A DNA stretch of 59,753 bases from Blastocatellia bacterium. Lineage in GTDB: Bacteria; Acidobacteriota; Blastocatellia; UBA7656. This document shows, piece by piece, positions 22,700-40,198 of this stretch. The position numbers and the translations under genes are program-made. The stretch covers positions 1 through 59,753 of the forward strand of contig JBBWZK010000221.1 of assembly GCA_039648975.1 (NCBI GenBank). Reading direction: 5' to 3'. The notes under the pieces are model-generated. The model was not told the origin of the DNA, searched no databases, and saw nothing but the letters and a program-made list of their open reading frames with translations. How positions within the stretch are numbered: the first letter of the stretch is position 1; the number at the start of each line of letters is the position of its first letter.

Positions 22700-22805
22700 T
22701 GGGGTAATTCCCGACACTTCCATCCTCTTTTCAGGACTGCCAGTCAATCGCAGAAATTCACTGCTGGTCAGGTGCAAAAGCTGCGCAGCTTTAATTAACG
22801 GGTAG
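22699..22805 (+). pseudogene. Possible remnant of a PIN/DUF3368-type toxin 5' end
   Basis: TGATG coupling, then ATG GGG TAA. Adding one G to the G-run gives MGVIPDTSIL, a PIN-like start, but the similarity ends after about 10 codons. Confidence 0.35.
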
Positions 22806-23930
22806 AACCTTTGGGAAAACATCCCAGGCCCAGCGGCCAACAGGCGCGCCGTGCATATCAAACACCTTTGCTCGATAGCGAAATTGATTGCCGTGCTCAT
22901 CCGTTCGTTTCGATTCTCTGAAATCCAAACTGATTGCCGAGATGCCGAGTTCGGGCAAGGTGTGTAGCTCGCTAGGCTCAGAGATACCGTTATGATTGGT
23001 ATCTTGCCACAATCGTAGTGAGGAGAAGATATCATCTCGGCGATCAATGACGCCATCTCCATTGCCGCCATTGCCGATCAGGTCGTACTCGGCAAGCGCT
23101 TTGAAGCCATTCGTCTCCGGCGATTCCCGTTGCGGCGTGAAATTGCCAAACAACTCCAAGCCACTGTCTATCCGGCCATTGCCGTTACGATCTAAAGCCA
23201 GCCAGGCATTGTCAGAGCCGATTGCGGGCCAGGCAATGCGATAGCGTATCCCATTGCCGGTGGGATCGAAAAGAACGCCGCCTGCGGCATCTGTCAGATC
23301 AAAGCCATTACCGCTCACATCGATCAGAATGGGTGAATAGAAACAGCAACATGGCGGATACGCTATCATCCCACTTGGACAGGTAGCGCCATTCGGTGAA
23401 TAGGAGCAATTCGCGCCGGAAGGGCCGATACAGCCGCCTTGAGCCGTTTGACTTTGGACAGCGATGCTCACGTTGACGGTGGTCGGCATAGTTACGGTAG
23501 CGCCAACCGCACTATCGAGTAAGAACTGGCTGTTGATGATGCCTGTCTTGGTATTCTGGCCATTGGTGGTTATAGTGAAGGAAAAATTCGTCGCGGCTCC
23601 GCCACCAGCGAGCATCTTGGTTTTGGTTCGGCTTGGGGTCACCGTGTAGCCGATTTCACTAAAATTAGAGGCTACAATAAAATCCACCTTAGCACTTGCT
23701 GTTCCGTCCGTCGGCACATCCGCCGAAGTCAATAAACTGATGGTGAACGTGACGGAGTCGTTGGAGGCATAGATGGCAGTCTTACTCTGAGAGGAGTTTC
23801 CCAACTTCACCGTCGCAGCATAAAGGGCCGGCTCAGCGGTGGCCCTCCGGCTTCCTGAGGGAGTCAGCGACAGAGAAAATGGGTTTACCAAGATCAGGCA
23901 ACAAGCGAGGAGAAGAATGCGTGGCAACAT
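22791..23930 (-). CDS. Secreted protein: beta-rich N-domain, 6-Cys mini-domain, FrpC self-processing-module-like Ca2+-binding C-domain (paralog 1)
   Basis: GGAGG RBS; signal peptide; [51 protein letters not shown] align by eye with the FrpC SPM. Confidence 0.85.
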
Positions 23931-38271: not shown

Positions 38272-39405
38272 CTATTGCGCGACTAAGAAGACATCCCAGG
38301 CCCAGCGGTCAACCTGTGCGTTACGAGAATCAAAGACTCTAGCCCGGTACTTAAACTGATTGCCGTACTGATCTGTACGCCTCGATTCTCGATAATCGAG
38401 ATCAATTGCATAAACGTTTAATGATGGCAGGGTATGTAACTCATTCATCTCTGAAATGCCGTTGTGGTTGGTATCCTGCCATAGCCGCAAGCTGGAGAAG
38501 ATGGAATCACGAGGCCCTATCCTTCCGTCACCATTGCCACCATTTTCGGGTTTGTCATATTCAGCCAGAGCAATAAAGCCATTACGATTTTCAGATTGCG
38601 GTTGTTGGGTAAAGTTGCCAAACAACTCCAGGCCACTATCAATCGTTCCATTACCGTTGCGGTCGAGTGCCAGCCACGCATCATCTGAACTAGCAGTTGT
38701 CCAGGCAACAGAAAATAGAGTGCCTGTGCCTGCCGGATCAAAACGCACCCCCGCAGTTGCATTCGTGAAGCTAAAGCCATCGCCATTGATGTCTATGATA
38801 ATCGGTGAGTAAAAACAACAGCACGGCGGATATGAAATCGTCCCTGAAGGACAAGTGATGCCGTTTGAAGAATAAAAACAGTTGGCCCCGCTTGGCCCAA
38901 AACAGCTCGTACCGCCTCCGCCAATAGGGCAAGTCCCATAAGATGATGCTATCTGGGAACCGCTATTTTGACAAAAATTCCAAGAGGTAACACCAGGGTC
39001 GCAAATAAGAAGGCTAGTAGTTATTTGATAAGTTACTGTTTGTACCCAACTCGTTGAAGTGACTACGGGAGTATTAAACATTGGCCAGCATTTCGTAGTC
39101 GCCGTAGAGTAATCGCTGCACCTAAACGAACAACCAAACTGGCCATCATTCCAATTTCCCAGAGCAACGTCTTCACTCTTATTTGCCCAAGTGATGGTCT
39201 TAACCTCGCTTTTTTCTATAGAACACATACCGCCAAAGGAATGACATGGATCACATAAATCGCAAACCGAAGTTGATAGGACCTCTCCTGGACATCCTGT
39301 CCTATAAACAGTACCGTCAGGATCACAATGACCTGCATGAGCCATCGGAATCTGTGATAGTAATAGGCCTATCAATATCCACAAGCAGAGTAGTTCTTTT
39401 TTCAT
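38272..39405 (-). CDS. Secreted Cys-rich protein with 6-Cys mini-domain and FrpC SPM-like C-domain (paralog 2)
   Basis: Signal peptide; 18 Cys in the mature N-terminal half; [43 protein letters not shown]. Confidence 0.85.
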
Positions 39406-39430: not shown

Positions 39431-40198
39431 TTATTGAGTACGTTTTAAAGACTTTAGGATTGCCAGATTTTCTTTTTCGTACTTGTTTACAATATATGAT
39501 AGTACTTGACGAGCAACATCCTCTCCCTTTTCCTGTTCAATTTGTTCAAGTTGTTTGAGTTTATCAAGAGCCAATTCTCTTGCATTATGAAGTCCTACAC
39601 GGAACTCCAACGACCTCCCTTCTTCTTCTTCTGGAAGCTGTTCGAGCTTAAGCTTAATCGCTTCTTGTTTTTGCATTAATCTCATATTTTTCGGGGTGAC
39701 TAATGCATCACGAAAGAGGGGCAGAATGCGTGCTATTTGTGCTTGTGTTCCTGCGCGAGTATCAAATATTTGTCTGACGAACTTAGATTCGCCATCCGAT
39801 GTTCCATCTTCATAAACAACTGCTAGAATGGTAATTCCTTTTTCAGGGCTTGTAGGTGACGGTAAACCACATTGTTCTATTCCCGTGGCCCCAGGAGCTA
39901 TTACTTTTTCAGTATCAATCCACTCGGATCTATAGTTAACTTCTGAAGAAGACAAGGAAATTGCTGTTATGGCCTTGTCCGAATCATTCCTTAATAATAG
40001 AAGAACATTATATTTCTGTACTTTCACATCAACGATGGTTAAATTCGGGACTAAGCTTATTACAGGGAAATTAACTTGCTTCTTAGAAGGGCTCGCTTTG
40101 AAGATGCCAAGTTTAGAAGACGACAAGAATATGAATAGACAAACACAAGAAAAAACCAGGAAATAAGGTTTCTGAGCGATTGCTTTGATTTTCTTCAT
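39431..40198 (-). CDS. Membrane-anchored/exported hypothetical protein, upstream partner of paralog 2
   Basis: AGGAG RBS before ATG40198; N-terminal hydrophobic helix; beta-rich then helical domain; 25-bp gap to the downstream gene; AT-rich. Confidence 0.75.

Follow-up and report, generated by a model that had tools for sequence, protein, structure and literature searches.

Two proteins encoded in a 59,753-nt stretch of DNA from a Blastocatellia bacterium (contig JBBWZK010000221.1, which we call the window) carry a short block with six cysteines directly in front of a domain that resembles the Ca2+-triggered self-processing module (SPM) of FrpC from N. meningitidis. The question that this locus raises is what the block is for: it could be a small peptide that is cut free, it could supply thiols for processing, or it could be a part of the domain that follows it. 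The published view is that SPMs are confined to RTX proteins (PMC7078468). In the literature the FrpC SPM is described as having a strict requirement for Asp-Pro, and protein engineers already use it as a tool (NeissLock).

Two old paralogs share the block

The preliminary description had noticed the block in both proteins. Both copies are real and were correctly placed (Table 1), and their coding strand is the minus strand; on the plus strand the translation of the block coordinates is ridden with stops, so we rejected that reading. In paralog 1 the block covers residues 176-209 of P0001, which are residues 167-200 of the ATG-started 379-aa P0003. The listed ORF of this gene runs to 23957, from a TTG upstream of the ATG. 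Both paralogs share the pattern C-x7-C-x8-C-x9-CCC-xx-S-P, and in both it adjoins the SPM-like domain.

Table 1. Features of the two paralogs and of the gene next to paralog 2, in positions of the window.
Feature	Position	Strand	Remarks
Paralog 1 gene	22791-23930	-	379 aa from ATG at 23930 (P0003)
Six-Cys block, paralog 1	23331-23432	-	C-x7-C-x8-C-x9-CCC-F-Y-S-P, including junction Ser-Pro
Junction Ser199-Pro200 (P0003 numbering)	23331-23336	-	In the place of FrpC Asp414-Pro415
SPM-like Ca2+-binding domain, paralog 1	22794-23333	-	Pro200 to C-terminus
Paralog 2 gene	38272-39405	-	377 aa
Six-Cys block, paralog 2	38803-38904	-	Including junction Ser-Pro; from translation and BLASTP
Membrane-anchored partner gene	39431-40198	-	No Pfam family; 25 bp upstream of paralog 2

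Paralog 1 consists of a Sec signal peptide, a Cys-free Ig-like β-sandwich, a GG linker, the block, Ser-Pro and the SPM-like domain. Its AF2 model has a mean pLDDT of 88.4, and with Foldseek the N-terminal domain matches pilin/adhesin/Calx-β-like sandwiches. Paralog 2 has a signal peptide (...AHA/G), a cargo domain with 12 Cys, a GGGGTS linker and then the block, Ser-Pro and the SPM-like domain. Scans of both paralogs against Pfam and NCBIfam found no family. All six Cys in the mature part of paralog 1 lie in the block, while paralog 2 has 12 in the cargo and 6 in the block.

In a BLASTP comparison the two proteins are homologous from the very first Cys of the block onwards: 206 aa align without a gap, as far as the C-terminus, with 70% identity. 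Their N-terminal halves show no relation to each other. Nucleotide identity between the paralogs is 67%, and by the Nei-Gojobori method the 34 codons of the block have pS=0.97 and pN=0.14, against pS=0.83 and pN=0.21 for the next 172 codons. Saturated pS together with low pN indicates old paralogs under purifying selection, which agrees with the earlier argument from identical Cys spacing and synonymous divergence that selection acts on the protein. Because dS is saturated, we give pS and pN instead of a numeric dN/dS. The block is under at least as much constraint as the domain that follows. When 49 proteins with this type of block are aligned, none deviates at the six Cys, at G14 or at the junction Pro, and Pro12, Gly29 and Ser41 hardly vary.

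An SPM-like domain with Ser in place of the catalytic Asp

The "SPM-like junction" of the preliminary description was an apt term. Pro209 of P0001 falls on residue 1 of the FrpC SPM structure (6sjw), and residues 209-364 match that structure's sequence at E=2.1e-25 (phmmer). The AF2 model matches 6sjw/6sjx with a Foldseek E=1.5e-11 and a TM of 0.77 on the target. Across 103 sequences we found the junction Pro to be invariant, along with W234 (FrpC W451), E-L-F-G (E474-G477), W308-Q-D (W519/D521) and the Asp of WAWDVF. In FrpC, W451, E474-G477 and W519/D521 belong to the port and Trp-pair machinery (PMC7078468). The homologs nearly always have Asn where FrpC has D478, and FrpC D478N keeps its activity. 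The Tyr at position -2 (F-Y-S-P) corresponds to the native Tyr413 of FrpC, which is among the most efficient residues at -2 in FrpC (PMC7846742). EF-hand-like loops, with conserved Ca2+-loop residues, complete the likeness of the homologous domains, and FrpC also has a variable N-terminal passenger ahead of the constant module.

The difference lies at position -1. Where FrpC has its catalytic Asp, the 246 sequences that we counted have Ser (195), Thr (44), Cys (6) or Asp (1), so 245 of them are Ser/Thr/Cys, and both copies in the window are Ser. By the definition of a FrpC-type SPM, homology to residues 415-591 is there and the scissile Asp-Pro is absent, with the Pro invariant and Ser/Thr/Cys before it. 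The residue at -1 switches about 37 times on the tree described below, yet it stays within Ser/Thr/Cys. More distant homologs in the phylum (33-56% identity) also have mostly Ser/Thr/Cys at -1, plus three Asp and one Glu. An invariant Pro behind a position limited to these three residues argues that the junction is functional. An N-to-O or N-to-S acyl shift would fit this pattern, with the cut then falling between Tyr and Ser, and so would some other chemistry of a twisted Ser-Pro amide. To our knowledge, cleavage of a Ser/Thr/Cys-Pro SPM has never been demonstrated for any member. In FrpC itself, D414A does not cleave (PMC7846742).

The context differs from FrpC as well. We looked in both paralogs for the setting of a T1SS RTX protein and found no RTX repeats; the SPM-like domain is C-terminal, the signal peptides are of the Sec type, and processing of these exported, non-RTX proteins is putative.

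The block is inherited with the module and not with the cargo

We built a tree from the 176 residues behind the junction in 248 sequences and mapped the block type on it afterwards, so that the block itself had no part in the tree. All 35 exact blocks fell into one clade of 38 tips with a support of 99, and the other three tips are near variants. The block label needs 3 state changes on this tree, compared with a mean of 33.2 and a minimum of 30 in 200 shuffles. Within the clade, the positions of the block other than Cys have a mean pairwise identity of 75%.

The cargo in the same clade is of at least five unrelated kinds, including the Cys-free Ig-like sandwich of paralog 1, several Cys-rich domains (as in paralog 2), HExxH metalloprotease-like domains and longer multidomain proteins. 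A short linker rich in G/S/T/P always precedes the block (QGG, GTS, GGGG, GGGGGGGGG, PPPPTSGG, PPPPPPPTSGG, TPTPTPGG and TPTPTPTPGGGGS are examples). Since the cargo varies and the linker always comes before the block, the recombination boundary lies upstream of the block. Judging by the tree and the linkers, then, the block belongs to a C-terminal module that is transferred between proteins, and forms its constant N-terminal part. As we delimit it from the alignments, this module is made up of the G/S/T/P linker, the Cys block, Tyr-(Ser/Thr/Cys)-Pro and a predicted Ca2+-binding fold of the FrpC SPM type, and it is joined to many unrelated Sec-exported cargo domains in Pyrinomonadaceae/Blastocatellia.

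Searching with the block by itself gave the same picture: 14 of the 14 matched proteins carry the SPM family. We also looked for precursors made of only a signal peptide, the block and the SPM. Five short candidates came up, all without a signal peptide, and we rejected them as truncated gene calls, fragments of longer relatives. In complete proteins the cargo ahead of the block is no shorter than 100 aa, and the block is never the sole cargo.

A Cys-rich cap in most of the family

The exact pattern C-x7-C-x8-C-x9-CCC-xx-[STC]-P occurs in 4 of the 11 paralogs of this genome, in 36 of 116 close homologs and in none of 129 additional cluster representatives; its absence from the last group means that it marks a small subfamily. 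The preliminary description had made its reading depend on whether most homologs share this spacing. The exact spacing is indeed missing from the 129 representatives, but richness in Cys is not: 128 of them have at least three Cys (3-9) in the 40 residues before the junction Pro. The SPM-like domain, for its part, has a Cys content of 0.04% across homologs.

The position of these Cys is also regular. Their frequency peaks at -4, -5 and -6 (0.53, 0.57 and 0.54), and there are smaller maxima at -16 and -25. Of 244 sequences, 90% carry one or more Cys at -4 to -6 (88% outside the exact-block clade), and for the wider stretch from -3 to -8 the share is 98%. By these counts the block is one clade's form of a general Cys-rich cap that other clades space differently. 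Among the distant homologs in the phylum, the number of flanking Cys falls to 0-6, with one exception that has 9. We considered a strict tie between the cap and Ser/Thr/Cys at -1 and rejected it, as three distant Asp-Pro/Glu-Pro homologs have 2-4 flanking Cys, one Asp-Pro homolog has none and the distant Ser/Thr-Pro homologs have 1-6.

Predicted fold and disulfides

In the AF2 model of the whole protein the block forms three strands, C175-Y177, M188-Y191 and C194-F197 (CCCF), with pLDDT of 82-91. A two-residue kink of Tyr-Ser follows and leads into strand β1 of the SPM, P200-D204 (PILID). Modelled alone, the block gives the same three strands with a core pLDDT of 79-84, and it looks like an autonomous β-sheet mini-domain in these predictions. 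That the unit is compact and self-contained, as the preliminary description had proposed, thus agrees both with the models (core pLDDT 79-91 overall) and with the lack of any other Cys in mature paralog 1.

The resemblance to knottins and defensins that had been suggested at the same time found no support. A Foldseek search of the isolated model against the PDB found no neighbour (best E=8.2), and searches of the block sequence against Pfam, NCBIfam and the PDB gave nothing meaningful. There was one PDB sequence match, to the designed protein 8pjy (E=0.0024), which we took to be compositional and spurious.

Next we turn to the state of the cysteines. We counted Cys in the mature N-terminal parts of the 156 members that have a recognisable signal peptide. 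The count is even in 127 of these (81%, binomial p=8e-16). Our cleavage-site heuristic is crude, so the true even share may be higher, and the odd counts in the other 19% may partly reflect errors of this heuristic. Complete pairing in disulfides would give just such even counts, and even parity favours disulfides over a free catalytic thiol. Four DsbA-like genes are present in the genome (6.9 Mb, 85% complete), and one of them lies 132 bp upstream of one of the other paralogs (L010) on the same strand. We detected no DsbB or VKOR in this 85% complete assembly. With six invariant Cys, the even parity, Sec signal peptides and DsbA-like genes, the block is most likely held by three disulfides.

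What the cap may do at the junction

The reading that we slightly favour is that the block is a disulfide-stapled β-cap, the constant front of a transferable SPM module, and that it anchors or clamps the Tyr-Ser-Pro junction. After export, DsbA-type oxidation would staple the cap. The last cap strand (CCCF), with each of its Cys bonded to an upstream Cys, would pass through the Tyr-Ser kink into β1 (PILID). Once Ca2+ folds the SPM-like domain, the junction would be pinned by a rigid element on either side, at the entrance of the conserved "port", and the cap may thereby set or strain the geometry of its bond. Should cleavage occur, the cap would remain on the cargo as a compact, protease-resistant C-terminal end. 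The main support comes from the position of the Cys: with a Cys 4-6 residues from the Pro in nearly all members, the last disulfide anchor would sit right at the junction, and the dipeptide would therefore be held between a stapled strand and a Ca2+-dependent β1. We infer both the clamp role of the cap and cleavage at or next to Ser-Pro.

Two observations sit poorly with a precise clamp. FrpC-type SPMs cut more slowly when a folded partner sits directly at the junction, and they benefit from a flexible linker (PMC7846742), so a rigid cap three residues from the junction is not obviously favourable. In addition, the spacing of the cap is highly variable and the most distant homologs have only 0-4 Cys, which means that precise clamp geometry can be no universal requirement. 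A bolder version, which we consider unlikely, is that the cap is required by a second and undescribed Ca2+-triggered self-processing chemistry, in which strain from the stapled strand, which ends three residues before the junction, or a transient thiol of one of its Cys would give an ester, thioester or thiolactone. If true, the cargo would leave this intermediate either free or joined to a surface acceptor, and tens of thousands of soil-bacterial proteins would share such a Sec-dependent "clip-and-link".

The strongest competitor of the clamp is that there is no processing at all, and that the SPM-like domain only folds, anchors or binds in a Ca2+-dependent manner with the block as a rigid disulfide stalk. 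The catalytic Asp is absent, FrpC D414A is inactive (PMC7846742), Ser is unable to form the five-membered anhydride, and a rigid neighbour should impede cleavage of the FrpC type. Furthermore, the recurrent membrane-anchored partner encoded upstream could bind the module as FrpD binds FrpC (PMC5233953). On the other hand, a position with only a structural role should tolerate Ala, Gly or Asn, while -1 has kept to Ser/Thr/Cys in 245 of 246 sequences through some 37 changes, the Pro next to it is invariant and so are the port and Trp-pair residues. We regard this explanation as a minority view that deserves to be taken seriously, a little ahead of the bolder chemistry above. A direct role of thiols, which the preliminary description had raised for the CCC run, seems to us improbable. 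A reduced Cys at -4 to -6 would attack the activated Ser-Pro or Tyr-Ser carbonyl and leave a thioester or a macrocyclic thiolactone at the C-terminus of the cargo. The enrichment at exactly these positions (0.53-0.57 each, at least one in 90% of 244) is the part of that idea that stood, and it is joined by the six of 246 sequences that have Cys at -1 itself and by the thiol sensitivity of the FrpC anhydride chemistry (PMC7078468). However, even parity in 127 of 156 members disfavours free thiols, and the Cys of mature paralog 1 number exactly six. The family as a whole keeps none of its Cys positions fixed, export takes the proteins to an oxidising compartment with DsbA-like enzymes, and distant Ser/Thr-Pro homologs have as few as 1-2 Cys nearby.

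Less probable again, and by a good deal, is the proposal that the block is the released bioactive product, a peptide of the defensin or knottin kind that is excised and acts as an antimicrobial or a signal. Such a peptide could well be a compact six-Cys unit that is predicted to fold alone and is under strong purifying selection, and a large, patchy and locally expanded family is typical of competition factors. Yet nothing in the PDB, knottins and defensins included, is similar to it; upstream we find only G/S/T/P linkers and no second cleavage site that is conserved; and enzyme-like and adhesin-like cargos of large size lie ahead of the block. It co-evolves with the module and shows no weapon-like diversification, and all 14 matched proteins combine it with the SPM-like domain, with which, rather than with the cargo, it is inherited. 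Our analysis gives no support to this claim of the preliminary description. We give just as little credence to a metal cluster (Zn, Cu or Fe-S) bound by the six Cys in place of disulfides. The CCC run and the CPxG turn do recall metal-binding knuckles, and the adjoining domain binds Ca2+. Against this, the proteins are exported by Sec, the Cys spacing varies in the family, even parity fits disulfides, and the block has no CxxC pair, no His partner and no match to a metal-binding family.

Comparison with known systems

Relative to FrpC, the Cys-rich cap before the junction is a further difference, in that constructs of the FrpC type work best with a flexible, unstructured N-terminal flank (PMC7846742). 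A second comparison is with acyl-shift domains. Inteins and Hedgehog Hint domains, SEA, GPS/GAIN, Nup98 and Ntn hydrolases all use Ser/Thr/Cys for autoproteolysis through an N-to-O or N-to-S acyl shift. By analogy, the Ser/Thr/Cys junction, a short strained turn flanked by rigid β structure, may resemble theirs, and the passenger could likewise pass through a (thio)ester on its way to release or transfer. Neither the sequence nor the fold of these domains is related to the SPM-like domain. The nucleophile of an acyl shift is C-terminal to the scissile bond, so if the analogy holds, the cut here would be between Tyr and Ser and not between Ser and Pro.

With knottins, β-defensins and the six-Cys frameworks of conotoxins, the block has in common its length of about 30 residues, its six Cys, a mostly β structure and probably three disulfides. 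The β-defensin framework is C-C-C-C-CC and that of knottins is C-C-CC-C-C, and the C-C-C-CCC of the block fits neither. It also differs from knottins and defensins in that it has no Foldseek or HMM similarity to them and occurs only in fusion with an SPM-like domain, never free-standing.

Size and spread of the family

A word-indexed search gave more than 7,900 matches, all of them with the precomputed Pfam annotation PF26745. We also searched 1.84 billion cluster representatives exhaustively (clusters at 50% identity) and obtained 22,203 matches at E≤1e-3, of which 3,596 were at E≤1e-30. The named genomic matches are almost all from Blastocatellia/Pyrinomonadaceae MAGs. In the phylum the family is patchy, as 32 of 301 genomes carry it, and it is locally expanded: the five richest genomes carry 11, 11, 6, 5 and 5 copies. 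Our literature search found no paper that links clip-and-link modules with Acidobacteria and none that names PF26745.

The Ser/Thr/Cys-Pro branch is a very large and unstudied class of possible self-processing proteins in soil Acidobacteriota. In this branch, of 22,203 clusters at 50% identity, a Cys-rich cap before the junction is almost obligatory and is inherited with the module. This settles where the mobile module truly begins, a point of importance for annotation and for attempts at reuse, and it removes a misleading annotation as a "defensin-like peptide". The cap also provides a testable handle on whether and how Ser/Thr/Cys-Pro modules process.

Gene neighbourhood

The genome encodes 11 full paralogs and one fragment. 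Paralog 2 has a GC content of 46% and the partner gene upstream of it has 38%, compared with 57% for the window. Four of the 11 paralogs (paralog 2 and three others) have this partner gene or a homolog of it directly upstream, and a second type of partner is found upstream of two more. Farther upstream of the paralogs, a TPR protein (4 loci), a 168-aa protein (3) and a stand-alone AraC-type HTH (3) recur.

Genes upstream of the SPM-like paralogs

Four of the genome's 11 full-length SPM-like paralogs (homologs of the FrpC self-processing module) have a gene for a membrane-anchored protein of about 250–295 aa immediately upstream on the same strand, and the copy in the window has a GC content of only 38%. 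A second, unrelated type of partner takes the same upstream position at two loci. Neither partner type had a match in Pfam.

Further upstream, several paralogs are preceded by a recurring gene set: a TPR protein of roughly 350–400 aa (four loci), a 168-aa protein (three loci) and a stand-alone AraC-type HTH protein of 117 aa that carries no ligand domain (PF12833, E=4e-25; three loci). At locus L012, a single open frame of 121 aa runs from an AraC-type HTH straight into the final ~26 residues encoded by an SPM-like gene, and the HTH portion reads …MAEITALVGLARSRV…LEKARVLL…. This looks like a deletion remnant in which the cassette's regulator gene has been fused to the tail of the SPM-protein gene.

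The Cys-rich paralog L010 (651 aa) lies 132 bp downstream of a same-strand gene for an exported DsbA-like protein of 362 aa, which may be a dedicated oxidative-folding helper.

Coordinates of genes associated with SPM-like paralogs
Feature	Location	Strand	Remarks
Membrane-anchored partner	window:39431-40198	-	adjoins SPM-like paralog upstream
Membrane-anchored partner	L013:9332-10159	-	adjoins SPM-like paralog upstream
Membrane-anchored partner	L016:8095-8838	-	adjoins SPM-like paralog upstream
Membrane-anchored partner	L019:5638-6408	+	adjoins SPM-like paralog upstream
Second partner type	L013:8462-9232		upstream position at SPM-like paralog
Second partner type	L015:6276-7061		upstream position at SPM-like paralog
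Recurring gene set	L013:10202-12414	-	equivalents in L015, L017, L019, L020
DsbA-like gene near L010	G000:C437:7157-8245 = L020:4658-5746	+	Thioredoxin_4
L012 fused frame	G000:C310:22327-22404 and upstream		AraC-type HTH + SPM-like tail

Cargo domains, module position and taxonomic outliers

An HExxH motif is present in some of the cargos that precede the module (L007 on G000:C17 and family proteins P0024, P0022 and P0018), with sequences such as HETGHTMSLGD and HEIGHTFGLGD, and P0024 has a precomputed match to Reprolysin_5. The module is thus joined to probable secreted zinc metalloproteases, besides adhesin-like Ig domains.

In a few representatives (P0240, 632 aa; P0224, 391 aa; P0146/P0148/P0191) the S/T-Pro module is not C-terminal: either the junction is at residue 80 or 26 with 350–550 residues after it, or ~45 extra residues lie behind the module. 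P0240 and P0248 each have two matched stretches.

The contigs of three close homologs (L032, L034, L057) are labelled as Clostridia or Saccharimonadales MAGs, while those of all other close homologs are Blastocatellia/Pyrinomonadaceae; we consider mis-binning a more likely source of these labels than true transfer.
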